A stretch of DNA of 64,000 bases from Opitutales bacterium (GTDB lineage: Bacteria > Verrucomicrobiota > Verrucomicrobiia > Opitutales > UBA2987), in contig CBDDEL010000013.1 in assembly GCA_965226885.1 (NCBI GenBank), forward strand, positions 128,001-192,000. The letters run 5' to 3'. The position numbers and the translations under genes were made by a program. Positions 13,126 through 52,714 of the stretch are shown here, one piece after another. The notes under the pieces were generated by a model. The model saw only the letters and a program-made list of their open reading frames with translations. It ran no database searches and was not told where the DNA came from. Position 1 is the stretch's first letter. The number at the start of each line of letters is the position of its first letter.

Positions 13126-13129
<4 letters not shown>

Positions 13130-36805: not shown

Positions 36806-37086
36806 AAGTTGGCGAACAGAACTTGCAGGCAAAATGTGCTGGTCAGACCGGTATAGCCAACGCTCTTGTTTTGGCAATATTTCCATTTTCCGGAATTTGA
36901 AAAAAAAGATGCCGCTGGAGGCGAAGGGCATTTTATCATCCAGGCTGATAGAGTCGGGAATAGAGAGAACATCGAAAAGATCTCCAAATTGGAAGTTGGC
37001 GAACGGAACCTGCGGGCAAAATGTGCTGGTCAGACCGGTATGGCCAATGCTCTTTTTTTGGCAATATTTTCATTTGCCGGAATTTG
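36806..37086. repeat. Imperfect 94-bp direct repeat (36806-36899 and 36993-37086), each copy carrying an operator-like box
   Basis: AAGTTGGCGAAC...CAAAATGTGCTGGTCAGACCGGTAT.GCCAA...CCGGAATTTG occurs twice, with a 187-bp period. Confidence 0.9.
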
Positions 37087-37175
37087 CAGAAAGACATTGC
37101 CGGGACTGTGGGATTTTTTTTCTGCGCTGATGAAGTCAGGATTGGAAAAAAACAAAAAGTTAACGAAATAGGGCG

Positions 37176-37228
37176 TTGACAAACCTATTTTGCTGCGCAA
37201 ATTAAACTGGTCATACCGGTAAGACCAG
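37176..37228 (+). promoter_or_regulatory. Sigma70-type promoter with a FadR/GntR-type operator
   Basis: TTGACA at 37176, weak -10 near 37198, and the near-palindrome CTGGTCATACCGGTAAGACCAG at 37207-37228 (two TGGTnnnACC-like boxes). Confidence 0.7.
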
Positions 37229-37297: not shown

Positions 37298-38002
37298 ATG
37301 ATTTATACTCGACAGAAATCTTCTATTGCACGGGAAACTTTCGATTTCATTGCGGATCGAATTCGGGGGGGTCGCTATGCCCCGGGCGACAAGTTGCCGG
37401 GGGAGCGGTCGTTGGCCAGGCAACTGAGGGTGGGCCGCAATTCCGTGCGGGAGGCCATCCGGCGGCTGGAAACGGCTGGATTGCTGGAAACCCGGCAGGG
37501 GTTGGGATCTTTTGTCAAAGATCCTAGCGGGGAAATCCTGCAAACTGCCTTGATTTCCAATTTTCTGACCGATACGGCCATTCAGGAAAAACTGTTCGAT
37601 CTTCGCCTCATTATTGAAGTTGAGGCCACCGTCAGGGCAGTTCAATGTATCACGCCCGAGCAATTGCAGGATTTACGCCGTTTTCATGAATTGGTGGAAA
37701 AGTGCAGCGCCCGCGGCGATATCGATGGAATGATCGTGGCCGATTTTGAGTTTCACCGCCAGCTTTTGGTGGCCACGGGCAATGATATTTTGGTCAACCT
37801 GATGGATGGCATTATGGACCTGTTGCGGGAGATGCGGCGGGTGGGGGCTGAAATACCGGAATTGCTTTCGGAAAGAATATCGAGCCATCGAGCCATTATC
37901 AAGGCCATTGAAAATGGAGACGGTGAGGCAGCCCGCAGAGCCATGAAAGAACATCTCGAAGGTGTATTCAAAAGGGTAAAATCAATCCGGGAAGATAAAT
38001 GA
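37298..38002 (+). CDS. GntR/FadR-family transcriptional regulator
   Basis: PGDKLPGERSLARQLRVGRNSVREA winged HTH; FCD domain (ADFEFH, ATGN, H..I..AI). Confidence 0.93.
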   Translation: MIYTRQKSSIARETFDFIADRIRGGRYAPGDKLPGERSLARQLRVGRNSVREAIRRLETAGLLETRQGLGSFVKDPSGEILQTALISNFLTDTAIQEKLFDLRLIIEVEATVRAVQCITPEQLQDLRRFHELVEKCSARGDIDGMIVADFEFHRQLLVATGNDILVNLMDGIMDLLREMRRVGAEIPELLSERISSHRAIIKAIENGDGEAARRAMKEHLEGVFKRVKSIREDK

Positions 38003-38024
38003 CCGATGGCGAGGCGATTTGCTG

Positions 38025-38912
38025 ATGAGGGCGTTTGAATACTTCGAGCCCGCTACTTTGTTGGAAGCGGCGGCATTGCTTGAGCGCTATAACGGGCGGG
38101 CCAGCATCCTGGCCGGCGGAACCGATTTGCTGGTTGAAATCAAGGAGCGGATTCGGCTGCCGGACATTGTTATCAACATCAAAAAAGTTCCCGGCCTCGA
38201 CTATTTAAGCTACGATTCCGAAAAGGGTTTGAAGATCGGGTCTCTGGCTACCCTGCGGGAGGTGGAGGTATCCCCTTTGGTGAAGGAAAAATACGCCGGC
38301 CTCTACCGGGCGGCCAGGGAATTGGGGTCGATCCAGGTGCGTAACCGGGCCACCGTGGCGGGAAACATTTGCCGGGCCTCGCCATCGGCCGACACCCTGC
38401 CGCCTTTGATCGCCGATAACGCTGTCATACAAACATTCTGTCCCAATGGGTCGCGGTCGGTTCCTTTGGAAAACTTTTTTACCGGTCCCGGGAAAACGAT
38501 CCTTGGGGAAGGGGAAATATTAACCGAAATCACGGTTCCCAGCCCACCGCCCCATACGGGCAAGGTTTACCTAAAACTGGGCCGCCGGGCGGCCATGGAA
38601 CTGGCCACTGTGGGGGTGGCCGTCAACCTAACGGTGAAGGGGAAACTCTGCCGCCAGGTATGCATCGTATTGGGAGCGGTGGCCCCGACGCCCCTGCGCG
38701 CGACCGAGGCTGAGAACGTCTTATTGGGTAAGGAATTAACGGATGAAGCGCTGGAAAAGGCGGCCCAGTGTGCCCGCCACCAAAGCCGGCCCATCTCCGA
38801 TGTGCGTGGCAGCGCGGATTATAGGCGGGAAATGGTGGGGGTCTTAACCCGTCGAGCCCTCCGCATGGCTTGGACGGCGGCGGAAAATGATAATTTGGAT
38901 AAATCGTCATGA
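38025..38912 (+). CDS. Xanthine dehydrogenase-family FAD-binding subunit
   Basis: AGGTDL, QVRNRATVAGNI, SPSAD, PISDVRGSADYR. Confidence 0.93.
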   Translation: MRAFEYFEPATLLEAAALLERYNGRASILAGGTDLLVEIKERIRLPDIVINIKKVPGLDYLSYDSEKGLKIGSLATLREVEVSPLVKEKYAGLYRAARELGSIQVRNRATVAGNICRASPSADTLPPLIADNAVIQTFCPNGSRSVPLENFFTGPGKTILGEGEILTEITVPSPPPHTGKVYLKLGRRAAMELATVGVAVNLTVKGKLCRQVCIVLGAVAPTPLRATEAENVLLGKELTDEALEKAAQCARHQSRPISDVRGSADYRREMVGVLTRRALRMAWTAAENDNLDKSS

Positions 38913-39394
38913 AGCACATTGTTTCAACAACGATTAACGGAGAGCGACGCGAATTGGCCATTGAGCCGTTCCGCAGTTTGCTCGACGTATTGCGCAACGA
39001 AGCGGAACTAACTGGTTCTAAAAAAGGCTGCGATGTGGGCGACTGTGGAGCCTGCACCGTAATTCTTGACGGGAAGACGGTAAATTCATGCCTCGTTCTG
39101 GGGGTGGAGATCGACGGGCTCGAGTTGACGACAATTGAAGGGTTGGCCGATGAGACTGCGCCGGGCGCCCCATTGCATCCTCTACAGGAGAGCCTTCTCC
39201 AGCATGGGGGGGCGCAGTGCGGGTTTTGCACTCCGGGGATTCTCATGGCGGCCAAGACATTGCTCGATGAAAATCCGCACCCGACCGAAGAAGAGGCGCG
39301 CTTTGCCATTGCGGGCAATCTCTGCCGCTGCACGGGCTACACCAAAATCATTGATGCCATCGTAAATACCCCAGTTGCGGAGGCTACTCCATGA
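38909..39394 (+). CDS. Xanthine dehydrogenase-family 2Fe-2S subunit
   Basis: GCDVGDCGACT...SC and QCGFCTPG...NLCRCTGY. Confidence 0.95.
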   Translation: MKHIVSTTINGERRELAIEPFRSLLDVLRNEAELTGSKKGCDVGDCGACTVILDGKTVNSCLVLGVEIDGLELTTIEGLADETAPGAPLHPLQESLLQHGGAQCGFCTPGILMAAKTLLDENPHPTEEEARFAIAGNLCRCTGYTKIIDAIVNTPVAEATP

Positions 39395-41715
39395 CGCCCA
39401 CAACCGTATTGGAAGCCAAACCTCCCAGTTTGCCCGTTGAGCAGGCAACGGGGGACGGCCTGTCCGTGGTTCACACCAGCCCGCCTCGAATCGACGGGTT
39501 GGAGAAAGTTACCGGTTCGGCTCTCTATGCGGCGGATTACACTCTGCCGGGAATGCTTTATGGAAAAATTCTGCGTAGCGAACAGGCCCATGCCAGGATT
39601 CTAAAAATCGATAAAAGCAAAGCCCTCGCTCTGGAGGGTGTGAAGGCAGTCATCACGCACGAGGACACGCCGAAAGTCCTGCACCCCGGGGCTCCGGCTC
39701 CACGAGTCGGACAACTCGTTGCCGATCAATACGTTCTGGCGGGAAAAGCCCGCTATGCGGGCGACGGCATCGCGGCCGTGGCGGCCACGACCGAGGAAAT
39801 CGCGGAGGAAGCACTCCAATTGTTACAGGTCGATTACGAACCACTCCCGGCTGTTTTCGATACCAATGAGGCCATGAAACCGAATGCTCCCAGCATTCAC
39901 GGCACGGCGGGAAACTTGGTTGGGCCGCCCTTCATCATCGAGCGGGGCGATGTCGAAAAAGGATTTGCCGAGGCGGAAACGATTTTTGAAGCCTATTATG
40001 AAACCGGAAGGCCGGTTCCCTGCTACATGGAGCCCAATGCCTGTCTCTGCCGGTTCGATCGCGGTGGCAAACTGACCATCTGGAGTTCGACCCAGTGCGC
40101 TTTCATGGTCAGGGGCATCTTGAGCCAGGTGCTGGACATTCCAGCCCACGATGTGCGAGTCATTGTCGAGCACATGGGCGGAGGTTTCGGGGCCAAGCAG
40201 GACCTTTACCAGCACGAATTCGTTTGCGCCATCCTGGCTCGTGAGACCCGCCGACCGGTCAAAATGGAATATACCCGCAAGGAAAGTTTTCTGGGCGGCC
40301 GCACCCGGCATCCCACCCGGATTTACCTGAAACAAGGCTTGGCCAAAGACGGCACGCTGACCGCCAGGGAAGCCCGCTACGTTTCCGATACCGGCGGTTA
40401 TGCTTCCCATGGCCTGGGGATCACCGCGGTGGGCTGCCTCGATATCGCCTCCCTTTACCGGTGCGAGGAACACCTTAAAATTGAAGGAATCTCCGTTTAT
40501 ACAAACAACCCCATTTCCGGGGCTTATAGGGGTTTCGGGGCGGTGCAGTCCTATTTTGCCCTGGAAACCCAAATCGACGAAATGGCGGCGGCGCGGGGCG
40601 AAGACCCGATCGATTTCAGGCTCAGGAATGTTGTTGGAGATGGCGACCTGAGCCCTTCCGAGCACAAGATCCGGGGCGATGGTTTGGCCGCTTGTTTGAA
40701 AAGGGGAGTCGTGGAAACGAATTGGCATGAACGTAAGAAATCTGCACTGCCGGGGCATGGATACCTCAGGCGAGGTTGGGGTGTGGCGACCGAGATGCAC
40801 AGCAGCGGCGCCTATCCGGACATCGTTGAGCAGTCCAATGCGGTCGCTAAAATGAACGAGGACGGCACCCTGAACCTCTTGATCGGAATGGCCGATCTGG
40901 GCACCGGAACCCGCACCATGGCGGCTCAAATTGCGGCCGAGGTTTTGGGTGTGCCGCTCGAGGATATAAGCGTGATCGATGGCGATACCGATGTGGCACC
41001 CTTCGATATCGGGGCCTATGCCAGCCGCACCACCTTTGTGGGGGGCGGGGCGGTCCTCAAGGCGGCCAAACATCTTAAACGGCAGTTGTTGGAATTGGCC
41101 TCGAAGAGGATGAATGTCCCCTGGGAAGAAATAATCTTGGGCGGAGGCCGGGCATTTGTGAAGCGCTCGCCCGATCGAGGAATGGCAATCAGAGACCTGG
41201 TGGCGGGAGAGGGTGGACGCCCGCCCCGGACCCTCATCGGCCAGGGAAACAACGAGCCCACCGTGGCCTACTCTTTCGGGGCCCATTTCGCGGAGGTGGA
41301 AGTGGACATTGAAACGGGGCAAATCCGGGTTTTGCAGGTGGTGGCGGTCCATGAAATCGGCCGGGCGATCAACCCTATTGCCGTGGCCGGTCAAATCGAA
41401 GGCGGCATACAGCAGGGATTCGGGCATGCCCTGACCGAAGATTTTATTATCGATAAAAAAACGGGACGGGCCTTGAATCCGAGTTTCGTCGATTACAAGA
41501 TGCCCCTGGCTCTGGACATGCCCAAAATAAAAACCATCATTCTGGAGGAATATCCCGACCCCGGCGGACCGTTCGGAGCCAAAGGCATCGGGGAAGACCC
41601 CATCATCCCTATCGGCCCGGCCATTGGCAACGCCGTTTACGACGCCACCGGGGTCCGCATGAGGGAACTTCCCATCACACCGGAAAAATTTCTTAAGGCG
41701 TTGGCAAAAATCTAA
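39391..41715 (+). CDS. Xanthine dehydrogenase-family molybdopterin-binding subunit (substrate unknown)
   Basis: GGGFGAK, AYRGFG, GAYASR, GQIEGG and AKGIGE (catalytic Glu). Confidence 0.93.
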   Translation: MTPTTVLEAKPPSLPVEQATGDGLSVVHTSPPRIDGLEKVTGSALYAADYTLPGMLYGKILRSEQAHARILKIDKSKALALEGVKAVITHEDTPKVLHPGAPAPRVGQLVADQYVLAGKARYAGDGIAAVAATTEEIAEEALQLLQVDYEPLPAVFDTNEAMKPNAPSIHGTAGNLVGPPFIIERGDVEKGFAEAETIFEAYYETGRPVPCYMEPNACLCRFDRGGKLTIWSSTQCAFMVRGILSQVLDIPAHDVRVIVEHMGGGFGAKQDLYQHEFVCAILARETRRPVKMEYTRKESFLGGRTRHPTRIYLKQGLAKDGTLTAREARYVSDTGGYASHGLGITAVGCLDIASLYRCEEHLKIEGISVYTNNPISGAYRGFGAVQSYFALETQIDEMAAARGEDPIDFRLRNVVGDGDLSPSEHKIRGDGLAACLKRGVVETNWHERKKSALPGHGYLRRGWGVATEMHSSGAYPDIVEQSNAVAKMNEDGTLNLLIGMADLGTGTRTMAAQIAAEVLGVPLEDISVIDGDTDVAPFDIGAYASRTTFVGGGAVLKAAKHLKRQLLELASKRMNVPWEEIILGGGRAFVKRSPDRGMAIRDLVAGEGGRPPRTLIGQGNNEPTVAYSFGAHFAEVEVDIETGQIRVLQVVAVHEIGRAINPIAVAGQIEGGIQQGFGHALTEDFIIDKKTGRALNPSFVDYKMPLALDMPKIKTIILEEYPDPGGPFGAKGIGEDPIIPIGPAIGNAVYDATGVRMRELPITPEKFLKALAKI

Positions 41716-41745
41716 TAATCCATACAAAAAGACTGAAATAAATTT

Positions 41746-42627
41746 ATGAAACCACCCATTATTGATTGTTTAACCCATATCAGCCGGGGGGCTGATGATG
41801 TTGTCGGATGGGGGCCACGGTTTTTGGCCGAGGACCTGATCGCGCAAATGGACGCTCCCCGGAAAATTCTAGGCGAATCCGCCCGAATCGACCAATCAAT
41901 CGTTTTTCCCGCCCTTGGGGAGACGGTTCCCACCTCCGAATTATCTTTCGGGGAGCAACACGAATATGTGCTCGCAAGTGTGCGCAAATACCCCGACCGG
42001 CTGATAGGAGGGGCCATCATCCACGCCCGGCTGTGGAACGACGATGTGGCTGGCCAACTGGAGTCGATGGTGCGGGAGGATAATTTCCGGATGCTTTATA
42101 TTCATCCATCCTTTCATAAATACTGGCTGCCAATTTCCACTCCCAGCGAGAGCGAGGGGTCGAAGCAGTTGCTCTATCCGGTATTCGAGTTTGCCCGCAA
42201 GTGGTCGTTGCCGGTTTTATTGCATACCGGCGAGCCTCCCTATGGATTGCCCGCGACTGTTGAATTCGTGGCCGGTGAATTTCCCGATGTGAGCATGATC
42301 ATCGCCCACATGGGGACCCAGGGGGTGGTTTACACCCTGGAGTCCCTGCTGGTGGCCCAGAATCACCCCAATGTTTTGCTGGAAACCAGTTTTACGCAAT
42401 GCCACATGCTCATTGAGAGCGTTCATTCGCTGGGCTCCGAGCGGGTGCTGTTCGGCAGCAATTGCCCACCCATGGAGCCGACCCAGCAGCTTATGACGGT
42501 GGAGGAGTCCCTCACCCTGGCCCCGCCCATTGGCATGAGTCTCTCTTTTGACAACACCCGCAAAGTGCTCGGCGGGAATCTTGCCGGGCTGATCCAAAAA
42601 ACCGATACGGCAGTAGCCCAACATTAG
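41746..42627 (+). CDS. Amidohydrolase_2-family protein, paralog 1 (degenerate metal site)
   Basis: IIDCLTH, LHTG, IAHMG, FGSNCP, LGGNLA. Confidence 0.8.
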   Translation: MKPPIIDCLTHISRGADDVVGWGPRFLAEDLIAQMDAPRKILGESARIDQSIVFPALGETVPTSELSFGEQHEYVLASVRKYPDRLIGGAIIHARLWNDDVAGQLESMVREDNFRMLYIHPSFHKYWLPISTPSESEGSKQLLYPVFEFARKWSLPVLLHTGEPPYGLPATVEFVAGEFPDVSMIIAHMGTQGVVYTLESLLVAQNHPNVLLETSFTQCHMLIESVHSLGSERVLFGSNCPPMEPTQQLMTVEESLTLAPPIGMSLSFDNTRKVLGGNLAGLIQKTDTAVAQH

Positions 42628-42642
42628 GAAATATTTTTTATC

Positions 42643-43521
42643 ATGTCTCGTATAATTATAGATTCGCACAACCACATTATTAACCACCGGGAGCCCGTCT
42701 GGGGCTGGGGGCCGCGTTTTACAGGGGACGACCTCATCGCCACCATGGACCGGGACTACGATGTCATGGGGGAAATACGGCACGTTGCAAAAGCCGTTAC
42801 TATGGGATCGCTGGGGATCACCGCACTGGGCGACTACACGATGGCGGAAGCGCATCAATATGTTCGCCAGTGCGTGCAGGAACATTCCGATCGCCTTTAC
42901 CTGAACGCCGTTTACAATCCCCGAATCTGGAGCGTCGATGAGTTGAACCAGGTGGACCAGTGGGTCGAGGATTCCAACCTGGTCATGCTCAAACTGCACC
43001 CGACGATGCACAATTTCCTGTTGCCCATGGGTAATCCTTATCCTGGCCGGGAGACCACCAAACTGGTTTTTCCCCTTTTTGAGAAAGCCCGCCAGTTGGG
43101 AGTGCCGGTCATGATCCACATGGGCGAGCCGCCCCACTCCAACCCCTCATCCATCGATCCGATTGCCCAGGAATTTCCCGATGTGCCGATCATCATTGCC
43201 CATTCGGGAGCGAATAACGAAATCAGCTACGCACTGGCGGCGACCATCGTGGCGCGGCACAACGACAATGTCTTTTTAGGCACCAGTTGGGTGCAGCCGT
43301 TGGATCTGAGCGAGATGTATTACGCCGTTGGGCCGAGCAAAATCATTTTTGAGAGCGATTGTGCGCCGCAATCGATGGGCCACCAGATGCGCCAGGTGAT
43401 CAACCTGCACCTGCCTCCGCCCCTGGGTGTGGGCGCCTCTGCCGATGAGGTTTATGAAATGATCGGGGGCAACATCGCCCGTTTGTGCAAAATCCCGGTG
43501 GGAGAGCCCGTTGGGGCCTGA
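42643..43521 (+). CDS. Amidohydrolase_2-family metal-dependent hydrolase, paralog 2
   Basis: IIDSHNH, LKLHP, IHMG, IAHSG, FESDC, IGGNIA. Confidence 0.85.
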   Translation: MSRIIIDSHNHIINHREPVWGWGPRFTGDDLIATMDRDYDVMGEIRHVAKAVTMGSLGITALGDYTMAEAHQYVRQCVQEHSDRLYLNAVYNPRIWSVDELNQVDQWVEDSNLVMLKLHPTMHNFLLPMGNPYPGRETTKLVFPLFEKARQLGVPVMIHMGEPPHSNPSSIDPIAQEFPDVPIIIAHSGANNEISYALAATIVARHNDNVFLGTSWVQPLDLSEMYYAVGPSKIIFESDCAPQSMGHQMRQVINLHLPPPLGVGASADEVYEMIGGNIARLCKIPVGEPVGA

Positions 43522-43531
43522 GTTTATAATT

Positions 43532-44536
43532 GTGAAAAAAGACTTTTGGCAGTCAGGCTTCCTGTTCTTGGCAAGCTTCCTCTTGATGGCCTTGGCCGGA
43601 GGGTGCTCCGGCGGGGTTGAAAAGAAAGGCGATGCCGATGTTTTCATGGTCGGTTTGCTTAGCCCGGGACCCGTCAACGGGCAAGGCTGGACACAGATTG
43701 CCTATGAGGCTCTACTAAAGATTGAGAAAGAATTGGGGGCGCAAATCAGCTATGTGGAGGTGGAGCAATCGCCGGCCTTGTTCGAGCGGGCCTTTCGCGA
43801 TTATGCCAGCCAGGGTTATCAGATGGTCCTCGGTCACGGTTTTGAATTTCAGGATTCGGCCCTCACGGTGGCGAAAGATTTTCCCGACACCTGGTTCTTC
43901 ATTTCCAGCAGCAAAATTCGGGAGGGCAATGTCATTGGGGTGGACACCGATTCGAGCCAGCCCTTTTACCTGATGGGAATCATAGCGGCCAAAATGGGCA
44001 AAGCCGCCGGGCTGATCGGGGGGGTGGAAATACCGCCCATCACCAACGCATTTATCGGATTCACCAATGGGGTTCGCAGCATCGACCCCTCTTTTCCCAT
44101 CAGCACCACTTATTTGGGCAGTTGGACCGATGCCGCGGCAGCCAAGGAAGCGGCCTTCAGCATGATAGGGGAGGGGGCCGATTTTATCATACCGGACGCC
44201 GATGCTGCTGGTTCCGGCGTTTACCAGGCCCTTAAGGAGACCGGCCCCGGCTATTGGTCTTTCGGAATCTACAACGATTTCACCTCACAGGCCCCGGACA
44301 ATATGATCGGCAACTATTTCAACGATTACGGGCAAGGTTTGGTCAATATTGCCCGGCAGGTGCAGGAGGGTAGTTTTGCGATTGAATCGAATATCGTATT
44401 CGGGGTTAAGGACGAAGACGTGATCTGGGTTGAGTTTGAAGAGGGCAGGGTGCCTGCCGATGTGTTGGAACTGGTGGAAGCCGCCAGGCAGGAGATCATT
44501 GCCGGTAAAATCGATACCTTGGCGCCCAACCATTGA
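43532..44536 (+). CDS. BMP-family ABC transporter substrate-binding lipoprotein (nucleoside/purine type)
   Basis: Lipobox LAGGC; GHGFEF, AKDFPDTWF and YLGSWTDAAAAKEAA motifs. GTG start at 43532. Confidence 0.88.
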   Translation: MKKDFWQSGFLFLASFLLMALAGGCSGGVEKKGDADVFMVGLLSPGPVNGQGWTQIAYEALLKIEKELGAQISYVEVEQSPALFERAFRDYASQGYQMVLGHGFEFQDSALTVAKDFPDTWFFISSSKIREGNVIGVDTDSSQPFYLMGIIAAKMGKAAGLIGGVEIPPITNAFIGFTNGVRSIDPSFPISTTYLGSWTDAAAAKEAAFSMIGEGADFIIPDADAAGSGVYQALKETGPGYWSFGIYNDFTSQAPDNMIGNYFNDYGQGLVNIARQVQEGSFAIESNIVFGVKDEDVIWVEFEEGRVPADVLELVEAARQEIIAGKIDTLAPNH

Positions 44537-45663
44537 AAAGGGAAACTGTGGACGCCAGGGATGCGGAAAGTGCACAGGATATGCCGTCAAATCAGCCGGA
44601 ACCAAAAAATTTTCCCCCTCCGATTAAGATCCTGCGTTCTGCCGGGCGAATCGTTGCTCTGCCCACGGCTGCCGTGGGCATTGCGTTGGCGGCAGGAGCG
44701 ATCCTGCTCTTGTCGGCGGGATTTTCTCCACTCAAGGCCTACGGGGTGATGGGGTATGGGGCTTTCGGTACGGTCAACAACCTGGCGGAGACGCTTCTCA
44801 AATCTACGCCCTTGATCTTGATCGGTTCGGGGCTGGCGGTGGCCTTTCGCAGCGGCATGTGGAATATAGGGGCCGAAGGCCAACTCTATGCCGGAGCGGT
44901 GGCGGCCACTCTGGCGGGGACTGTTTTTTCGGATCTGCCCGCAGTCCTCCTGGTTCCTTTGGTTTTGATTTCCGGTATGGCCGGCGGCGCTGTGTGGGGC
45001 GGACTGGCCGGATTTTTCAAGGTGCGGTTCGGCGCCAGCGAAATAGTCACCACCATCATGCTCAATTTCCTGGCCATCATTGCCACCAGCTATTTGGTGA
45101 CCGGGCCGATGATTGAGGAAGTGGGTAAATTTCCGCAAACGGCACAAATCGCGGAAGCGGCCCGGCTTCCCCGCATCTTGTTGCCGACCCGCCTCCATAT
45201 TGGTTTCATCCTGGCCTTGGCCGTCTCCCTGGCGACCTATGTGCTGCTTTTCAAGTCCAGCCGCGGCTATGCCCTGCGCACCGTTGGGATAAGCCCGGAT
45301 GCGGCGCGCTATGCCGGCATCAATGTGGGCGCGGGCCTCCTCACCGCCATGGCTATCAGCGGCGGGGCGGCGGGATTGGCCGGGGCCGTAGAAATAACCG
45401 GTTTAACCTATCGGCTTTATCAGGAGATTTCTCCCGGTTACGGTTTTGACGGGATCGCCGTCGCCCTTTTGGCCAACAACAATCCCCTGGGGGTCATCTT
45501 CACTGGTATTCTCTTTGGGGCCTTGCGCTCCGGTTCCGAAGTCATGCAGATGAATGCCCAGGTGCCCGCCGTCCTGGTTTCCGTCATCCAGGGGGCGGTT
45601 TTGCTTTCGGCGGCAGCTTTCGGAGTATTTCGAATCACCGTGGCGGATCCACATAAGGAGTAG
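44533..45663 (+). CDS. Nucleoside-type ABC transporter permease 1
   Basis: WNIGAEGQ, EIVTTIMLN, GYGFDGIAVALL. Confidence 0.92.
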   Translation: MKRETVDARDAESAQDMPSNQPEPKNFPPPIKILRSAGRIVALPTAAVGIALAAGAILLLSAGFSPLKAYGVMGYGAFGTVNNLAETLLKSTPLILIGSGLAVAFRSGMWNIGAEGQLYAGAVAATLAGTVFSDLPAVLLVPLVLISGMAGGAVWGGLAGFFKVRFGASEIVTTIMLNFLAIIATSYLVTGPMIEEVGKFPQTAQIAEAARLPRILLPTRLHIGFILALAVSLATYVLLFKSSRGYALRTVGISPDAARYAGINVGAGLLTAMAISGGAAGLAGAVEITGLTYRLYQEISPGYGFDGIAVALLANNNPLGVIFTGILFGALRSGSEVMQMNAQVPAVLVSVIQGAVLLSAAAFGVFRITVADPHKE

Positions 45664-45669
45664 TTGAAA

Positions 45670-46608
45670 ATGGAACCGCTGGCCATAATTGCATTTCTCG
45701 CTGCGGTGCTGGGGGCTGCCTGGAGGCTGGCCACTCCTTTCATCTATACATCGTTGGGAGAAGTATTTTCAGAGCGGGCCGGAGTATTGAATATCGGGCT
45801 CGAGGGCGTCATGCTGATCGGAGCTTTCAACGCATTTGCCATCGCCTTTTTTACGGGCAGCCCTTTTCTCGGTCTGGCGGCCGCTTTGGCCGCCGGATTG
45901 CTCTGCGGGCTGCTCTTCGCATTTTTGACCGTAACCGTGCGGGCCAACCAAATCGTGGTGGGGGCAGCCTTCAACCTGGCCGGTCTCGGTTTGACCAGTT
46001 TTCTTTACCGGTCCGTGTTTTCCGGGCGCATGGAGACGGCCCGGGAATACGTTTCCTTCGTTCCCATCGAAATACCATTCTTAAGCCGTTTGCCATTTTT
46101 CGGTGAAATTTTCTTTCGGCAAAATTTGATCGTTTACGCCACCCCGCTGGTGGTTTTGGCGGGCGCCTTCATCCTTTACCGGACCGCCTTCGGCCTCTCC
46201 CTCAGGGCCGTCGGAGAACACCCGCGAACGGTCGATGCGGCGGGATTGAAAGTGAGCTTGATCCGCTATTGTGGTGTTTTAACCGGTTGCGGATTGGCGG
46301 CCATGGGTGGCGCTTATTTGACAATTGCTCACACTAACCAGTTTAACGAGGGCATCACCTCGGGCCGTGGATTTATTGCCCTGGCGGTGGTCGTTATCGG
46401 ACGTTGGTCTCCCTGGGGCGCATTCTTCGTTTCCCTTTTGTTTGGATTTTTTTACGCCCTTCAATTGAGGCTGCAAGCGGTCTCCTCCATAACGATACCC
46501 TACCAGTTTCTGCAAGCCTTGCCCTACCTGCTGACTTTGCTTGTATTCGTCGTTCTGCGCAAACGAACCGCCCCGCCCGCCGCGCTGGGCGTTCCCTACA
46601 AATCATGA
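45670..46608 (+). CDS. Nucleoside-type ABC transporter permease 2
   Basis: SERAGVLNIGLEG, LRAVGEHP, GRGFIALA, PAALGVPY. Confidence 0.92.
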   Translation: MEPLAIIAFLAAVLGAAWRLATPFIYTSLGEVFSERAGVLNIGLEGVMLIGAFNAFAIAFFTGSPFLGLAAALAAGLLCGLLFAFLTVTVRANQIVVGAAFNLAGLGLTSFLYRSVFSGRMETAREYVSFVPIEIPFLSRLPFFGEIFFRQNLIVYATPLVVLAGAFILYRTAFGLSLRAVGEHPRTVDAAGLKVSLIRYCGVLTGCGLAAMGGAYLTIAHTNQFNEGITSGRGFIALAVVVIGRWSPWGAFFVSLLFGFFYALQLRLQAVSSITIPYQFLQALPYLLTLLVFVVLRKRTAPPAALGVPYKS

Positions 46609-46631
46609 CTTGAAATTGTGGCACAGTCGTT

Positions 46632-48164
46632 ATGAGTGAAGTTTTTCTCAAATTGGATAAAATCGTCAAAAGTTTTCCCGGTGTAAAGGCTAACCGCGGG
46701 ATCAGCCTGGAAGTCGGGAAAGGGAAAATTCATGCTTTGCTGGGTGAAAACGGCGCCGGCAAGACGGTTCTTATGAGCATCGTCTATGGGCTCCACCAAC
46801 CCGATTCCGGGAGCATTGTTTATCGCGGCGAACCTGTTGCCATCCATTCTCCCAAAGACGCCATCAAAAGAGGCATCGGCATGGTCCATCAACACTTTAT
46901 GCTGGTTCCAACCCTGACGGTGGCGGAAAATATCGTTCTGGGACAATACCCGCCCTGGAAGGTTTTGCGGGAAATGGGTAAAGTGGAATCGAGAATCGAG
47001 GAGTTGAGCCAGAAATTCGGGCTGAAAATCGATCCTCGCGCTCCCGTGCATCGTCTTTCGGTGGGGGAACAGCAAAGGGTGGAAATTTTGAAGGCTCTTT
47101 ATCAGGGCGTGGACCTGCTCATTCTCGATGAACCGACGGCCGTGCTTACCCCTCAGGAAACGGATGGGCTTTTGAACTTTTTGAAAGAAATGACTGGGCG
47201 CGGATTGACCGTTATTTTCATCACCCACAAGCTGGACGAGGTTATGCGGGCGAGCGACCGGGTAACGGTATTGCGCGACGGCCGGGAGGTTGCCATGGTG
47301 CAAACGGCGGAAACCAATCCGCGCGCGCTGGCCCGGCTTATGGTGGGGCGGGAGGTTTTTCTGGAACCTCCGTCGAGAGAGGGAACGGTGGGTAAAAATA
47401 TCCTTTCGGTGAAAAACCTGACGGTCAACGACGAGCGGGGTTTGCCGGCTGTAAGGGATATAACTTTTGAGGTGAAAAGCGGGGAAATCGTTGGCATTGC
47501 CGGGGTGTCCGGGAATGGACAGAGTGAACTGGCCTTGGCTCTAGCCGGATTGAGGCCCGTTTCAAGCGGCCAAATTTATTTTCTCGACACCCCGGCGACT
47601 AACCTGCTTCCGCGAAAATTGAGCCGCCTGGGGCTCGCCCATGTGCCCGAAGACCGGCACAAAATGGGAATCGTGCTGCCTTTCACGGTGGCGGAAAATT
47701 TTATTTTGCACGATTTCGGCGATCCGCCATTTGCCCGGAACGGATTTTTGCGTTCGGGGTTAATTCGCCGCCACGCCAGGAAGCTGGCCCAAAAATATGC
47801 CGTTCGCCATAGCGCGGTGGATCAGGAGATCGGCCAGCTTTCGGGCGGAAACCAGCAGAAGGTGGTCGTTGCTAGGGAATTGCAGCGCAGCCCGCGTCTC
47901 CTGTTGGTCAACGAGCCGACCCGAGGGATCGATATCGGGGCCACCGAATTTGTCCGCCGGCAAATAGCGGCGGCCCGCGATGCAGGATCGGCCGTGCTGC
48001 TTATATCTTCGGACTTGGAGGAATTGTTTGCCCTCAGCGACCGTTTACTCATTTTTTATGAAGGAAAAATTGTCGGCCAAACCCCCGCAAATAACGAACT
48101 TATCGAGGAAATCGGTTTGATGATGGCGGGCCATAAAATCGAAAATTATGCGCCTGAAAACTGA
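46632..48164 (+). CDS. ABC transporter ATP-binding protein with two ABC domains (nucleoside/sugar type)
   Basis: GENGAGKT, VHQHFML, LDEPT, LSGGNQQK. Confidence 0.94.
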   Translation: MSEVFLKLDKIVKSFPGVKANRGISLEVGKGKIHALLGENGAGKTVLMSIVYGLHQPDSGSIVYRGEPVAIHSPKDAIKRGIGMVHQHFMLVPTLTVAENIVLGQYPPWKVLREMGKVESRIEELSQKFGLKIDPRAPVHRLSVGEQQRVEILKALYQGVDLLILDEPTAVLTPQETDGLLNFLKEMTGRGLTVIFITHKLDEVMRASDRVTVLRDGREVAMVQTAETNPRALARLMVGREVFLEPPSREGTVGKNILSVKNLTVNDERGLPAVRDITFEVKSGEIVGIAGVSGNGQSELALALAGLRPVSSGQIYFLDTPATNLLPRKLSRLGLAHVPEDRHKMGIVLPFTVAENFILHDFGDPPFARNGFLRSGLIRRHARKLAQKYAVRHSAVDQEIGQLSGGNQQKVVVARELQRSPRLLLVNEPTRGIDIGATEFVRRQIAAARDAGSAVLLISSDLEELFALSDRLLIFYEGKIVGQTPANNELIEEIGLMMAGHKIENYAPEN

Positions 48165-48230
48165 AATCGGCTTTATTTTGTTCTCTTGCTCCTGGCCATT
48201 AAACAAGCTACTAATTGGATTAGCTTAGAC

Positions 48231-48824
48231 GTGAAACGATTAATTATAGGCATTACCGGCGCCAGCGGCGTTATTTATGGAATTCGTTTATTGGAAATTT
48301 TGCGGGAAACGCAAGAGGTGCATACCCACCTTGCCATTAGCAATGCCGGTAAGCGCACCATTCTCCTGGAAACGGATTTTTCAATTGCCGGGGTGGAAGC
48401 GCTGGCCGACGAAGTAATTGCCATTGGCGACATCGCCGCCAACATCTGCTCCGGCTCTTTTAAGACCTACGGCATGATTGTGGCGCCCTGCTCGATTCAT
48501 TCCCTTTCCGGAATCGCTCATTCCGTGTGCGATAATCTGATCCTCAGGGCGGCCGATGTGGTCTTGAAAGACAGGCGGAAATTACTTCTTTTAGTGCGCG
48601 AAACACCCTTGCACCGGGGTCATATTGAACTAATGGAGCGTGCCGCCAAATTGGGGGCCATCATCATGCCGCCGGTTCCCGCCTTTTATCATCGTCCGAA
48701 AAAGTTGGACGATATCATCAACCAAACGGCCAACCGCGCACTAGACCTGATGGATATCGAATTGGATGAGGATTTGTATGAACGCTGGCAAGGCCCTGGG
48801 CAGTCACAAGAACCTAAAAGTTAA
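48231..48824 (+). CDS. ubiX: Flavin prenyltransferase UbiX family
   Basis: GITGASG, SGSF, RAADV.LK, RETP, PPVPAFY. Confidence 0.93.
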   Translation: MKRLIIGITGASGVIYGIRLLEILRETQEVHTHLAISNAGKRTILLETDFSIAGVEALADEVIAIGDIAANICSGSFKTYGMIVAPCSIHSLSGIAHSVCDNLILRAADVVLKDRRKLLLLVRETPLHRGHIELMERAAKLGAIIMPPVPAFYHRPKKLDDIINQTANRALDLMDIELDEDLYERWQGPGQSQEPKS

Positions 48825-48838
48825 AGGAAGATTGATCG

Positions 48839-50191
48839 ATGGCATCACTGAGAACTTTTCTCGAAACTCTTTCCGAAGATGAGATACTGCGCTTCGAAGA
48901 GCCGATGGAACTGGATTATACTCCGACCGCGCTGGCTCTGGAATTGGGGAAAGAGCAGAAATTTCCCATGCTTTGGTTTGAGCAGCCCAATGGCTTCGAT
49001 ATGCCGGTAGTGGCCAATATTTTTGCTAACAGAGACCGCATTGCCCGTATCGCCGGGGCGCCTGATGCGGCCAGTTTCAACGAAACCTGGCTGCGGGCGG
49101 AAAATAATCCCGTTTCGCCTCGTCTTGTCGATTCCGGTCCCGCCCAGGAGTTGGTTTTCATCGGCGACGAGGTGGATGTGCGGACGCTTCCCATCAGCCG
49201 CCATTTTCAGGCCGACGCCGGGCGCTACATCGGCTCCGGCATATTGATCTGCAAAGACCCTGACACAGGCGTGCGCAACCTCAGCTACCAGCGTTTGCAG
49301 TTGAAGGGCAAAGACCGCTTTGGGGCCAGCTTGCACTCCAGGGCCCATATATGGGATCACTTGATTCGCTCGCAGAAACGGGGCAAAAATCTTGAGGTGG
49401 CGGTGGTTATCGGGGCGCATCCGGCTATTTATCTGGCGGCCGCCGCCAAGGTGGCCATGGAGGTGGATGAGCTGGACATTGCGGGCGGGCTTTTGGGGAA
49501 ACCGGTCGATCTCGTAAAATGCCGCACTATCGATATAGAGGTTCCAGCCGAGGCCGAGATCGTCATCGAGGGCGAATTGCTGGCCGATGCGAGTGAGGAC
49601 GAGGGCCCCTACGGTGAATACACCGGCTACTCAACTTACCGATCAACCCGCAATGTATTCGTCGTCAAGGCGGTCACCCGGCGAGAGAAACCGATTTATC
49701 TGGACATCATTCCGGGTAATTCGAGCGAACATCTATTGCTTGGCCGCTGTGCCAAGGAAGCGCATGTATTCAATCGGCTGAAGGAGGTCGTGGCGGGGGT
49801 CAAGGCCATTAATTACCCCAAGTCGGGAACTCATTTTCACGCCTACATCTCCCTCCAAAAAGGGGCCGAGGGGCAGGCCCGGCACGCCATCATGCTTTTG
49901 TTCGGTTTGGATTCCTATCTGAAACTAGTCATCGCCGTCGATGAGGACATCGATATTTACAACGTGGAGGATATTCTCTGGGCTTTGGCTACCCGATTTC
50001 AGGCCGACACCGATTTGTTTGTCGTGCCCAAAGTATTTTGCAATCGACTCGACCCTTCCGCCGTCGATGGCATGTCCGCCAAGTTGGGCATTGACGCGAC
50101 GCTGCCGCCAGATTTCGAGGCGGAGCGAATCGCTCTTCCCGCGGAGGCATTGGAGAGGGCTCGTTCGGCTTTGGCGAAATTGCTGGTTTGA
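48839..50191 (+). CDS. UbiD-family prFMN-dependent (de)carboxylase, probably not the quinone-pathway enzyme
   Basis: DAGRY, NLSYQRLQ, EGPYGEY catalytic motif, VDEDIDI, WALATRFQ, KLGIDAT. Confidence 0.92.
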   Translation: MASLRTFLETLSEDEILRFEEPMELDYTPTALALELGKEQKFPMLWFEQPNGFDMPVVANIFANRDRIARIAGAPDAASFNETWLRAENNPVSPRLVDSGPAQELVFIGDEVDVRTLPISRHFQADAGRYIGSGILICKDPDTGVRNLSYQRLQLKGKDRFGASLHSRAHIWDHLIRSQKRGKNLEVAVVIGAHPAIYLAAAAKVAMEVDELDIAGGLLGKPVDLVKCRTIDIEVPAEAEIVIEGELLADASEDEGPYGEYTGYSTYRSTRNVFVVKAVTRREKPIYLDIIPGNSSEHLLLGRCAKEAHVFNRLKEVVAGVKAINYPKSGTHFHAYISLQKGAEGQARHAIMLLFGLDSYLKLVIAVDEDIDIYNVEDILWALATRFQADTDLFVVPKVFCNRLDPSAVDGMSAKLGIDATLPPDFEAERIALPAEALERARSALAKLLV

Positions 50192-50199: not shown

Positions 50200-51766
50200 C
50201 CCGGATATTTCATGAAGGGTAAAGTTTGGCTCGTTATTGCTATTGGAGATGGATTTCTTTGTATTTTGGGCGGATCGTCTTGATTTTGAGGTGTTTTTCA
50301 GGGTGTAGAGACACTTCCCCCTTTCCCCCATTGGTTCGGTAGCGCCGGGGGCAGCGCCAATGCGCCCTTTAGGTTGGCACCAACCGGCGGGCCGCATGGT
50401 TGAAAAGACTGGCCCATGGATAACTTTCACTTAGGTGAAAGTGAATCGTTCGGGTGTTGCGCACGATTACCGCTCCGATCTTGATTAATTTTAGCCGTAG
50501 ACTGTGGCATTGGAGACGCGCCCACTTCGTCCCTTTTAATGCGAACCGGCGCAAGGCTTCCATCAAGGTGTAGGCCAGCCCCGACAAGAGCAATCGCCAC
50601 TGGTTGGCCCACCATTTATGCGCGCTGGTGCGTTCGCTGAACAATTGCATCTGTTCCTTGATCCGGTTCTCCATCTCACCGCGGCCACAGTATACTTTGT
50701 CGTAAAGCTCTTGGGGATCGCCCTGCAGGTTCGTCACCACGAAGCGCGGGTTGGACCCCTGTGCGGTGTGTTCGGCTTTGTGGATGATAAGGCGTTGGCG
50801 CCGCCACGATTTTGCCCCATACTCGAAGTGCTGAAACAGCCGTTGCTTTTTGCCGCTACCCTCGAACCATTGTTTGGCTTGCTCCTGCAACTGCCGGGCC
50901 GCTTGCTGCAAGCGTGCATGGCGGGCCGTTCCCACTATAAAATAAACCTCGTTGCGCTCGCACCACGAGAGAATCCGATCCCGGCAGAATCCGCTGTCGG
51001 CACGCCAAATAATCCGCGTATGGGGCCAGCTTTGGCGAATCCGTTTAACCAGCAATTTGAGGATGGCCCCGGCATGCTTGCTCGCATCGATCTTGCTGGG
51101 CCGCAGGTAGGCCACCAGAAGCTGATCGCCGCAAAAAACATACAGCGGCAAAAAACAGTAATGATCATAATAACCGTGGAAAAAACGTCCCTCCTGGAGC
51201 CCGTGCACCGGATTGTCGGTGGCGTCAAAGTCCAGGATGATCTCTTCGGGTTCCTCGGCAAAGGATCCGATGAACTGTTCGACCAGCAACTCGTTCAGGG
51301 CAAAGGCTGCCCGCCGATCCTGCCCGTTTTCAAAACGACACAAAGTCGGCGCGCTGGCCAACGCTTCAGTGCGCCCCGTTACCGTTTGCAACAAAGGATC
51401 GCGGCGCAGGGTGTCAAAGTCGTTCAAATCCTCATAGCCCGCCCCCAGCCCGTAAACGCGCTGCCGGATCATGGCCAGCATCTCATGGCGCACTTTGCCC
51501 TTCTGCCGTTTGTCTACTAATTGCCGGGCCGCTTGCTCGGTCAAGCCCAACCGCCGATCCACTTCCCGGATCAAAAGCAGCCCGGCATCCGAAGTAACCT
51601 CACCGCCCTTAAAATCAACCCGCACACGGCGGCCTTTTACCCTTGTCAACTGTAGTTCTAATTGTTTACTTTTTGTCATCGCTGATATTGCTTTAATGTT
51701 TAATCTATCCTGCTGTATATCAGCAGATAAGCATATCAGCGATACTTTTTTTATGAAATTTCCGGG
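50200..51766 (-). mobile_element. IS1380-family element, copy C (1567 bp, diverged isoform)
   Basis: TIRs CCCGGATATTTCAT / ATGAAATTTCCGGG with CTAA on both flanks. Confidence 0.92.
50369..51679 (-). CDS. IS1380-family transposase (intact, 436 aa)
   Basis: TSDAGLLL, GYEDLND, LDFDATD, RADSGF, Y..RGEMENRIKE. Confidence 0.93.
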   Translation of the reverse strand: MTKSKQLELQLTRVKGRRVRVDFKGGEVTSDAGLLLIREVDRRLGLTEQAARQLVDKRQKGKVRHEMLAMIRQRVYGLGAGYEDLNDFDTLRRDPLLQTVTGRTEALASAPTLCRFENGQDRRAAFALNELLVEQFIGSFAEEPEEIILDFDATDNPVHGLQEGRFFHGYYDHYCFLPLYVFCGDQLLVAYLRPSKIDASKHAGAILKLLVKRIRQSWPHTRIIWRADSGFCRDRILSWCERNEVYFIVGTARHARLQQAARQLQEQAKQWFEGSGKKQRLFQHFEYGAKSWRRQRLIIHKAEHTAQGSNPRFVVTNLQGDPQELYDKVYCGRGEMENRIKEQMQLFSERTSAHKWWANQWRLLLSGLAYTLMEALRRFALKGTKWARLQCHSLRLKLIKIGAVIVRNTRTIHFHLSESYPWASLFNHAARRLVPT

Positions 51767-52714
51767 CTAAGGGACAATCCGAGTGCCCGTTTCTCCGATT
51801 AGGGCGCGCTCGATATTTTCCGGATCGGTAATAATGGCCTCTTTGCCGCCTCGTTCCAGAAAATGGATGGCGGCTTCAATTTTCGGGGCCATGCTGCCGC
51901 CGGCGAAATGAATCCCTTCGGCCAGGTATTGTTTAGCCTCGGCCAGGGTCATGCGGTCGATCCACTGCTGGTTCGGTTTGCCGAAATGCAAGGCCACTTT
52001 TTCCACCGCGGTGCTGACAATAAAGAGTTCAGCGCCGATTTCATTGGCCAAGAGCGCGCTGGCGTGGTCCTTGTCAATGACGGCGGCCACCCCTTGGAGG
52101 TAGCCATCTTCATTCGCCACCACGGGGATGCCTCCACCTCCAGCCGCAATTACCACGAAACCATCCTCAATGAGTTTTTTAATGGCCTCCACTTCGACGA
52201 TACGGATGGGTTTGGGGGAGGCTACTACCCGCCGCCAACCCCGCCCGGCGTCCTCCATCACATGCCATCCGTCCAACTCCCGGCGTCTCTCCGCAATCTC
52301 TTTGTCCATGAATGAACCGATGGGTTTGGAGGGGGTTTGAAAACCGGGATCGTCGCGCGATACTTCCACTTGGGTTACCACCGTGACGGCTTTTTTATCC
52401 AGACCGAATTCCTTGAATTCATTGTATAGGTTTTGCTGGAGAGAGTAGCCGATGGAGCCCTGGGAATTGGCACCGCACACCTCCAGGGGCACTTCGTGCA
52501 ATTCATGCAACGACAGCTCCGAACGCCGCAGCATGAAACCTACCTGAGGGCCGTTGCCGTGGGCGATGACCACATCCCATCCATCCTTGATCATGGAAAC
52601 GATATGATCGCAGGTCTCCTTGGCTGCGATGTATTGATCCCTTACGGTTTGGTGAAATTTATCTTTGATCAGCGAATTTCCACCGATCGCCACAACGGCG
52701 ATTTTTTTGGCCAT
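51767..52714 (-). CDS. arcC: Carbamate kinase (ArcC/YqeA family)
   Basis: AIGGNSL, HGNGPQVG, PSKPIG, WRRVVASP, GGGGIPV, AVIDKD, GSMAPK. Confidence 0.93.
   Translation of the reverse strand: MAKKIAVVAIGGNSLIKDKFHQTVRDQYIAAKETCDHIVSMIKDGWDVVIAHGNGPQVGFMLRRSELSLHELHEVPLEVCGANSQGSIGYSLQQNLYNEFKEFGLDKKAVTVVTQVEVSRDDPGFQTPSKPIGSFMDKEIAERRRELDGWHVMEDAGRGWRRVVASPKPIRIVEVEAIKKLIEDGFVVIAAGGGGIPVVANEDGYLQGVAAVIDKDHASALLANEIGAELFIVSTAVEKVALHFGKPNQQWIDRMTLAEAKQYLAEGIHFAGGSMAPKIEAAIHFLERGGKEAIITDPENIERALIGETGTRIVP

Follow-up and report, generated by a model that had tools for sequence, protein, structure and literature searches.

A twelve-gene operon of an Opitutales bacterium (Verrucomicrobiota; GenBank assembly GCA_965226885.1) probably converts a pteridine to a purine without O2, as a divergent version of the pathway that leads from lumazine to xanthine in Cupriavidus sp. 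LA-1. The operon lies at positions 37298-50191 of the 64,000-nucleotide stretch analysed here (contig CBDDEL010000013.1, positions 128,001 to 192,000; hereafter the window). The observations behind this reading are the gene content of the operon, the orthology of its molybdenum (Mo) enzyme, the homology of two PF04909 proteins and the state of their metal sites, the co-occurrence of these genes in other genomes and the conservation of an operator. From these we infer the chemical steps, the assembly of the PF04909 proteins into a heteromer, the ligand of the substrate-binding protein and the fate of the product.

A preliminary description of the window, made from the letters alone, had reported twelve co-directional, tightly packed genes. 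The open reading frame (ORF) listing contains all of them, on the + strand, with gaps of at most 30 nt and with four junctions that overlap by 4 or 11 nt. Together with one insertion sequence (IS) just downstream, the features are:

37298-38002, +: regulator of the GntR family, FadR subfamily (PF00392, 71 bits; FCD domain PF07729, 104.6 bits)
38019-38912, +: FAD subunit of a Mo-hydroxylase, like the M subunit of lumazine dehydrogenase (LuDH); XorM (FAD_binding_5 and CO_deh_flav_C)
38909-39394, +: [2Fe-2S] subunit of the Mo-hydroxylase, LuDH S-like; XorS (Fer2_2 and Fer2)
39391-41715, +: molybdopterin subunit of the Mo-hydroxylase, LuDH L-like; XorL (Ald_Xan_dh_C, MoCoBD_1 and MoCoBD_2)
41746-42627, +: PF04909 alpha-like subunit with a defective metal site, 293 aa (Amidohydro_2)
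42643-43521, +: PF04909 beta-like catalytic subunit, candidate ring-contracting isomerase, 292 aa (Amidohydro_2)
43511-44536, +: BMP-family substrate-binding protein (Bmp domain, signal peptide, likely lipobox)
44533-45663 and 45664-46608, +: two ABC permeases (BPD_transp_2, PF02653)
46632-48164, +: ABC ATPase with two nucleotide-binding domains (double ABC_tran)
48186-48824, +: UbiX flavin prenyltransferase, which makes prenylated FMN (prFMN) (Flavoprotein; NF004685, 258.7 bits against a cut-off of 188)
48839-50191, +: UbiD-family decarboxylase, candidate xanthine-8-carboxylate decarboxylase (UbiD_N, UbiD and UbiD_C; TIGR00148, 332 against 244.85)
50369-51679, -: IS transposase (DDE_Tnp_1_4), outside the system, a secondary insertion between ubiD and a carbamate kinase gene

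By the Pfam annotation of the block, the earlier statement that the cluster contains no uricase, oxygenase or quinone-biosynthesis gene is correct, and AMP-binding, ECH and GMC genes, which would mark a context of furoyl-CoA synthetase, hydratase and HMF oxidoreductase, are absent from the operon and its flanks. The two genes that had been called amidohydrolases are indeed there; they belong to the PF04909 amidohydrolase-2 family, not to the classical cyclic amidohydrolases.

The published counterpart is the lumazine-induced 'cluster I' of Cupriavidus sp. LA-1, which serves to degrade lumazine as well as 7-hydroxypterin and takes lumazine via 7-hydroxylumazine, 6,7-dihydroxylumazine and xanthine-8-carboxylate to xanthine (Doi, Maeda & Takaya 2025; PMC12391406). 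LuDH (LA1_0145-0147) is a three-subunit XOR-family enzyme that, with water and NAD+, forms first 7-hydroxylumazine and next 6,7-dihydroxylumazine; pterins are oxidised as well, and there is no oxidation of xanthine (<0.1 U/mg). DHLI (alpha LA1_0152, beta LA1_0151) is an alpha2beta2 isomerase of the PF04909 family that contracts the ring to xanthine-8-carboxylate and does not accept 6,7-dihydroxypterin (<0.1 U/mg); its beta subunit holds the Zn ligands, and the alpha subunit is without the two His yet required. XCDC (LA1_0150), a UbiD decarboxylase that is inactive on furoate and furandicarboxylate, yields xanthine together with UbiX (LA1_0144). A GTP-binding protein (GTPase, LA1_0143) raises DHLI activity and 'always' accompanies DHLI beta orthologues, and the cluster also encodes a pterin deaminase, permeases and regulators (PMC12391406). 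Tetrahydroxypteridine cycloisomerase, which converts tetrahydroxypteridine to xanthine-8-carboxylate, figures there as a known bacterial activity without a gene; it is the same reaction as we propose for the window pair, and it has never been tied to this branch of PF04909. The setting of that work is a carbon-source route in aerobic soil Proteobacteria, and its main text names Proteobacteria and Actinomycetota alone as host groups and leaves ABC transporters unmentioned (PMC12391406). In its searchable supplements, 'Verrucomicrobi' and 'Chloroflex' occur in 16S tables only, although image-only distribution figures might depict such clusters; a full-text literature search on the intermediates and enzymes of the pathway gave this paper alone as relevant, besides a 2026 deaminase paper. 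As sequence stand-ins for the LA-1 cluster we used plasmid records of Burkholderia sp. RPE67 (L079), Sinorhizobium medicae (L080) and Cupriavidus campinensis (L120). On the C. campinensis chromid the order is alpha, beta, UbiD, NCS2 permease, a gap, XorM, XorS, XorL, UbiX and GTPase, which equals LA-1 0152 to 0143.

The window operon shares with the LA-1 cluster a three-subunit XOR enzyme, two adjacent PF04909 paralogues, UbiD with UbiX, and O2-independent chemistry, and with the S. medicae version of the cluster a GntR regulator ahead of the M-S-L genes. In the scheme that we propose, the BMP-type ABC system would bring in a base of the pteridine type, with lumazine, 7-hydroxylumazine or a close pterin as the likeliest. 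The Mo enzyme would add water-derived oxygen at C7 and C6 to give 6,7-dihydroxylumazine (2,4,6,7-tetrahydroxypteridine), after which a heteromer of the competent beta-like and the defective alpha-like PF04909 proteins would attack the C7 amide and convert the pyrazine to an imidazole ring, giving xanthine-8-carboxylate. UbiD, with prFMN made by UbiX, would then remove the carboxyl group to leave xanthine, and the GntR/FCD repressor would sit on TGGT-N3-ACC palindromes until a pathway ligand releases it. The general scheme of the preliminary description, in which an N-heterocycle is imported, hydroxylated with water by the Mo enzyme, reworked at the ring by the PF04909 proteins and decarboxylated as an azole by prFMN-UbiD, all without O2, is retained here, and pterin, which it had listed among other possible substrates, agrees with the pteridine reading that we favour. 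Gene-for-gene orthology to a characterised pathway, which it had named as an outcome that would refute it, holds for UbiX and the Mo enzyme; UbiD and the PF04909 pair show distant homology only.

The closest tie to the published pathway is the Mo enzyme. XorL is 58% identical to the C. campinensis cluster gene (879 bits) and 57% to that of S. medicae; the corresponding values are 59% and 54% for XorM and 60% and 64% for XorS. The window genome has five XOR large-subunit genes, and the best match among them to the S. medicae cluster gene is the cassette XorL (57%, 873 bits), the next copy reaching 36% and 402 bits. In the reverse test on three lumazine-cluster genomes with 13-25 XOR matches each, the best match was every time the gene inside the cluster (58-63%, 945-1081 bits), with a runner-up at 38-41%. 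A quick tree of 15 large subunits separates all 11 cluster-linked sequences from the four paralogues of the window genome by a branch with support 99. Judged by sequence, the window enzyme is an orthologue of LuDH, and it has the LuDH-type three-subunit XOR composition of the LA-1 cluster type. XorL scores below every NCBIfam equivalog cut-off (best XdhA, 670 against 780). We also asked whether a second Mo enzyme, on contig C15, is a canonical xanthine dehydrogenase that belongs to a purine cluster; its neighbours are unrelated, and the idea found no support.

The PF04909 pair is far more distant from its published counterpart. The alpha-like and beta-like proteins are 36% identical to each other. 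In the beta-like protein the metal ligands His9, His11 and Asp239 are intact, whereas in the alpha-like protein Leu9 stands where HxH has its first His and Asn239 where the Asp ligand would be; the 11 sequences compared, drawn from Opitutales and Chloroflexota, show no exception to either state, and in all 11 variant clusters the defective paralogue lies directly upstream of the beta-like gene. The published cluster has the same order, with the defective subunit first, the competent one second, and HxH and Asp kept in the second alone. The defect itself differs: by alignment the published-type alpha has lost both His and kept the Asp, while the window alpha-like protein is without the first His and the Asp. 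The pair matches DHLI at E values of 1e-37 to 1e-40, with 28-32% identity to the C. campinensis and S. medicae PF04909 proteins, and for the beta-like protein the identity to DHLI beta is 29.5-30% in the clusters of S. medicae and Caballeronia (E 1e-36 to 1e-37). Matches to solved structures are weak (E 6.6e-6 and 5.6e-4 with single sequences, to the uncharacterised 3irs and 3cjp; E 1.4e-7 with a 46-sequence profile, again to 3irs/3cjp), and DHLI appears to be the closest characterised relative. A database search gave 120 clusters, of which the 115 best are 51-93% identical, mostly from Chloroflexota metagenome-assembled genomes (MAGs) where named, and none is functionally named. The beta-like protein is a homologue of LA1_0151 in a clade of its own (support 100/100), at a distance at which orthology to LA1_0151 is not demonstrable.

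A 46-row quick tree and a 21-row careful tree, the latter built from a subset of the rows of the former, agree in placing the window-type alpha and beta sequences in one group (100/100), and in both the published-type alpha branches from within the beta sequences of its own type. The approximately unbiased (AU) test rejects the best tree that unites all alphas (delta lnL 71.4, p ~3e-98), for a group that was defined after the quick tree had been seen. The window pair therefore has an independently duplicated defective subunit, and a defective partner arose twice. That a design with a dead partner subunit evolved twice suggests that the heteromer is mechanistically needed, not a historical accident. 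The locus also provides a natural second sequence family for studying the mechanism and specificity of the isomerase.

The UbiD protein occupies an intermediate position. It is 43% identical to the cluster UbiD of both C. campinensis and S. medicae and belongs to a sister clade of XCDC, and UbiX is 50% and 58% identical to the respective UbiX proteins; no other UbiD-family or UbiX gene was found in the window genome, so that the cassette copies are the sole ones. A quinone-pathway UbiD was rejected at 179.5 bits against a cut-off of 788 (NF008175) and 224.3 against 495.9 (TIGR03701). In a 74-row quick tree, for which seven loci were dropped for short or interrupted matches and which has no HmfF among its rows, the window clade has support 99, and its nearest outgroups are a Hadesarchaea sequence and then the published XCDC type (SH-aLRT 90 and 84).

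A survey of 78 loci fetched with the window UbiD shows three recurrent contexts, which interleave inside the window clade. The first comprises 10 loci (3 Opitutales, 7 Chloroflexota) with the window-type PF04909 pair, a LuDH-like enzyme in 8 and a BMP importer in 9, the exceptions being mostly contig-end cuts. Because the PF04909 pair and the window-clade UbiD recur together in 10 of 78 UbiD-bearing loci from two phyla, the arrangement of the cassette is not a matter of chance. In the second context, 13 loci from 7 Rhodoplanes, 4 other Alphaproteobacteria, 1 Ardenticatenaceae and 1 Hadesarchaea, a window-clade UbiD stands beside published-type DHLI and LuDH. Identity of this UbiD to the window protein is 65-69% for the 12 bacterial loci and 51% for the one from Hadesarchaea. 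Compared with S. medicae, the DHLI beta proteins of the 11 proteobacterial loci share 84-91% identity and those of the remaining two 61-68%; where LuDH was fetched, its identity is 74-78%, and the GTPase is present in 5 of the 13. Rhodoplanes serenus and the Ardenticatenaceae MAG have two UbiD-family genes each. One of the two is the clade member in the cluster; the other shares 27-34% identity with it and, in Rhodoplanes, has its best score with the quinone-type model. This leaves the window-type UbiD as the sole candidate decarboxylase for the DHLI product in these two genomes. By sequence comparison, then, the window UbiD clade appears to stand in for the published XCDC type beside bona fide DHLI in Rhodoplanes and others. 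As a side observation, in the Rhodoplanes clusters (L019-L023 at ~18650; L022 and L048 at ~16550) a weak NMT1-like match (28-31%) separates the XorS gene from the XorL gene.

The third context comprises 22 loci in which a window-clade UbiD (57-71% identical) heads a conserved operon. After UbiD come a binding protein of the NMT1/THI5 type, the ATPase and permease of an ABC importer and an aminohydrolase of the TRZ/ATZ type, and genes for XOR or PF04909 proteins are absent (L007, L012, L013, L015, L016, L024, L025, L029-L033, L038, L041, L043, L045, L047, L049, L051, L052, L060 and L065, at ~10000-15000). Such an operon may handle a carboxylated amino-heterocycle, for example a pterin carboxylate. 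The more distant UbiD loci L067, L069 and L071 have CoA-ligase, TRAP or TctC contexts and are not hmf clusters.

Several of these results weigh against a pathway of the LA-1 kind. The PF04909 pair is only 28-33% identical to DHLI. In 96 of 97 plasmid records, by contrast, true DHLI beta is conserved at 85-100% identity, with 71% in the remaining record, and MAGs of Ardenticatenaceae, Caldilineaceae and Hadesarchaea still show 61-70%; against such conservation across phyla, an identity of ~30% makes the window pair a separate family, and its substrate could differ. As the UbiD clade also occurs in the unrelated third context, clade membership alone does not fix the substrate, and the best solved relative of the window UbiD is 6h6v (327 bits over residues 34-434; next structure 190 bits). 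The COG0523 GTPase is absent from all 10 variant loci, and in the window genome it gave no tblastn match at E<1e-8, the sole PF02492 match being partial (23 bits). The operon also has no pterin deaminase. An 8-oxoguanine deaminase-family gene is present, unlinked, on another contig of the window genome (505 bits against a cut-off of 532). In one Chloroflexota variant cluster (L064) such a gene directly follows ubiD (633 bits against 532), which speaks for the pteridine reading; the extra genes of L064, at 11421-14326, also include a YqeB-type gene (selenium-dependent Mo-hydroxylase maturation) and a CofC-like gene. Finally, no Xpt-type xanthine phosphoribosyltransferase was found in the window genome, and one Caldilineaceae genome, described below, has both types of isomerase, which argues against full redundancy and makes a difference in specificity possible.

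The last point raises the question of whether the pair uses the same chemistry on another pteridine than that of DHLI. The operon might take 6,7-dihydroxypterin (leucopterin) through guanine-8-carboxylate to guanine without a deaminase, or might accept a 6- or 7-substituted pteridine; we regard this as unlikely, although it draws on several of the results above. The pair forms a separate deep family at ~30% identity, the cassette is without a deaminase, and HGPRT would salvage guanine directly; moreover, DHLI refuses 6,7-dihydroxypterin (<0.1 U/mg) while LuDH oxidises pterins (PMC12391406). In the Caldilineaceae MAG (G431; L006, L124), the variant cluster consists of GntR, alpha, beta, BMP ABC and UbiD and has no Mo enzyme of its own, and its other cluster combines one published-type beta with XorM/S/L and a BMP-like importer; this co-occurrence may be a binning artefact. 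The other genomes speak for replacement over specialisation: four of five variant-type Chloroflexota genomes are without published-type DHLI, and none of five published-type genomes carries the variant pair, so that 9 of 10 genomes are single-type, which mostly fits one isomerase family replacing the other. Furthermore, one variant cluster does carry a pterin/8-oxoguanine-type deaminase, and no sequence feature points to a particular substituent.

A second alternative is that the operon breaks down a different heteroaromatic acid with N or O in the ring, for instance furandicarboxylate or a (di)carboxylate of pyridine, pyrazine or quinoxaline; the PF04909 proteins would then be decarboxylases or lactonases, and UbiD would act as HmfF does. 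Decarboxylases and lactonases are known members of PF04909. The structures 6h6v/6h6x, which have a generic PDB title, are those of what we take to be the 2,5-furandicarboxylate decarboxylase HmfF of Pelotomaculum thermopropionicum, with which the window protein shares the UbiD fold and prFMN chemistry on a heteroaromatic acid, and the components of the transporter score best, below cut-off, on 'putative B6 ABC transporter' models. We nevertheless consider this improbable. The Mo enzyme is orthologous to LuDH, the pairing of a competent with a defective PF04909 protein occurs in DHLI, and the neighbours in related clusters are purine- or pterin-linked. Unlike the HmfF/HmfG system and other furoate pathways, the window operon has no furoyl-CoA synthetase or other CoA ligase and no hydratase, and XCDC itself is inactive on furoate and furandicarboxylate (PMC12391406).

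The clostridial 'xanthinase' route preferred in the preliminary description, in which xanthine is opened to 4-ureido- and then 4-amino-imidazole-5-carboxylate and UbiD decarboxylates the latter, is highly improbable: its gene families fit superficially, the binding protein resembles base-binding BMP proteins, and both routes are O2-independent with decarboxylation of an imidazole carboxylate, but LuDH of LA-1 does not oxidise xanthine (<0.1 U/mg; PMC12391406), the hydrolases are homologues of DHLI, one of them without a full metal site, and the later clostridial genes for aminoimidazole deamination, imidazolone hydrolysis and formiminoglycine are missing in and beside the operon. The orthology to LuDH, the homology of the PF04909 pair to DHLI and the absence of those later genes together make a purine most likely the product here and not, as in clostridia, the substrate. 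The genes of the clostridial pathway (Rabinowitz) were given by Tong et al. 2023, as cited in a passage of PMC12507026; a passage of a 2012 genome paper calls them unknown at that time. In our literature search, no paper was found that assigns a UbiD enzyme to aminoimidazole-carboxylate decarboxylation, which the preliminary description gives as background.

Returning to the conversion of a pteridine to a purine, what sets the window operon apart from the published type is a second isomerase family, another UbiD clade, an ABC importer of the BMP type in place of the NCS2 permease, the lack of a chaperone GTPase, and a host that points to salvage. The variant occurs in Verrucomicrobiota and Chloroflexota, the published type, by its main text, in Proteobacteria and Actinomycetota. 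If correct, the same pathway logic would exist in the former two phyla, built from a second, very distant family of ring-contracting enzyme, in a variant that seems to work without the Zn-chaperone GTPase. A stronger version, which we offer as speculation, is that the isomerase is independently evolved, chaperone-free and of non-DHLI specificity (for example leucopterin to guanine-8-carboxylate), and that the cassette was acquired by one Opitutales genus which has lost de novo purine synthesis, has no urate catabolism and makes its purines from environmental pteridines (breakdown products of folate and pigments) by an O2-free route of salvage rather than catabolism.

The fate of the purine can be approached from the gene content of the window genome, which is 96% complete. 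Uricase, HIU hydrolase and OHCU decarboxylase gave no match in it, and HGPRT is present (190 bits against a cut-off of 150). As for synthesis, purH is present, purM has no match and purF only GlmS-like partial matches, and tblastn with the purine cluster of a same-family genome, purQ, purF and purM of a same-genus MAG and an alphaproteobacterial purC gave no real match for purL, purQ, purC, purE, purD, purF or purM. In three of four other species of the genus, purF and purM are below cut-off or absent, and in two of the 10 variant loci, both Chloroflexota, an IMP dehydrogenase gene lies inside the cassette (L011, 11400-12860; L010, 3579-5036). The genus may be a purine auxotroph; the lack of recognisable urate catabolism, the presence of HGPRT, the missing pur genes and the IMP dehydrogenase genes in 2 of 10 loci suggest salvage. 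If a host with neither recognisable purine synthesis nor urate catabolism salvages the product, pteridines would count as a source of purines in nature. Against this, the same-family genome has purL-purM-purQ-purC-purE-purF-purD-purN within one 10-kb stretch, so a single assembly gap could hide these genes, and the fourth species of the genus has both purF and purM on a 4.9-kb contig. The odds that the purine made by the operon is salvaged rather than burnt are, in our view, roughly even.

Regarding the transporter, the BMP binding protein has a signal peptide and a likely lipobox (…MALAGGC), and the solved structures closest to it, at 99-104 bits, are 7x0r ('Lbp'), 3s99 ('basic membrane lipoprotein') and 6pi5 ('atrazine periplasmic binding protein'), compared with 53 bits for the nucleoside binder TmpC (2fqw). 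By sequence it appears nearer to the 3s99/6pi5 group than to TmpC, a point in favour of the pteridine scheme. It shares the PF02608 fold family with these BMP/PnrA-family base binders, here in an ABC set of two permeases and a fused ATPase, but its identity to them is low. Our searches, which were not aimed at this point, turned up no pteridine-binding BMP protein.

The FadR-type regulator and operator of the preliminary description are borne out by the domains and by a palindrome that is conserved in relatives. The protein has an N-terminal GntR helix-turn-helix and a C-terminal FCD domain. Its GntR/FadR-type operator is TGGTCATACCGGTAAGACCA, a palindrome of 20 bp at 37208-37227, placed 71 nt ahead of the start of gntR. 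Operators of the FadR subfamily have a palindromic TNGT-N-ACNA-type consensus. Copies with one mismatch lie at 36840-36859 and 37027-37046, one in each copy of a 105-nt direct repeat (36806-36910 and 36993-37097, + strand; 89% identical). The three operator-like palindromes are spaced by ~185 nt, and the array could be a tandemly duplicated control region or a set of cooperative repressor sites. GntR copies 48-55% identical head the Chloroflexota clusters, and the same motif is found ~50 nt 5' of gntR in all four regulator-containing Chloroflexota loci (L006, L008, L011, L040) and upstream of gntR in a same-genus relative (L123). Genome-wide (5.48 Mb) there are 19 sites with up to two mismatches, of which two are perfect, 37208-37227 among them. 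The other perfect site, TGGTCCTACCGGTAGGACCA at C16:215396, has a CUT2-type ABC transporter on one side and an S58 (DmpA-type) peptidase gene on the other, neither with an obvious link to the cassette; it could mark a second regulon member or be the site of another GntR. A TTGACA hexamer at ~37178, just 5' of the operator, was read by eye and was not listed by the promoter scan. No riboswitch reached the Rfam gathering threshold in the window, where the sole Rfam match is a tRNA gene (4897-4970, -). In the closest same-genus genome (G409:C27, locus L122), the alpha-like gene has one in-frame TGA, an IS lies within ~350 nt 5' of gntR, and there is no operator match there; this cassette may be decaying, or the assembly may be in error.

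The distribution of the variant is narrow within its phylum. Its beta subunit is present in all four other species of the genus, in none of four other genera of the family, in none of 22 other genomes of the order and in none of an evenly drawn sample of 400 from the phylum. Most relatives of the pair are in Chloroflexota, and the trees do not nest Opitutales inside Chloroflexota. From sequence data, this distribution suggests that the cassette was acquired by one genus.

In the window, the cassette has on one side the dcw cluster (end of ftsZ at 30395) and on the other an opposite-strand pyrR-pyrB-pyrC-carbamoyltransferase-carbamate kinase operon, and IS elements flank it on both sides. A composite transposon carrying the cassette was considered and rejected, as the flanking IS are missing at these spots in relatives: in four related Opitutales contigs (L001, L002, L003, L054) ubiD leads straight into the carbamate kinase/pyr genes with no IS, and in a same-genus genome gntR is ~750 nt from ftsZ. 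The IS copies are therefore later insertions, and the cassette is a stable chromosomal feature of the lineage. In 51767-53823 (-), after pyrR-pyrB-pyrC in an apparent operon, the carbamate kinase scores as an arcC equivalog (367.6 bits, cut-off 358.25), and the carbamoyltransferase is below every NCBIfam cut-off (OTC subfamily, 261 against 306). Both genes adjoin the cassette in four relatives and have no evident link to it. The IS load of the window is at 31377-36066, 50369-51679 and 58226-60495, and also at ~436-2269 and 57124-57937 / 63382-64000. It comprises several DDE_Tnp_1_4 copies or fragments, an IS21 istA/istB pair and a repeated segment of ~800 nt, and a DDE_Tnp_1 element is present in two copies (493-aa ORF at 33680-35161).

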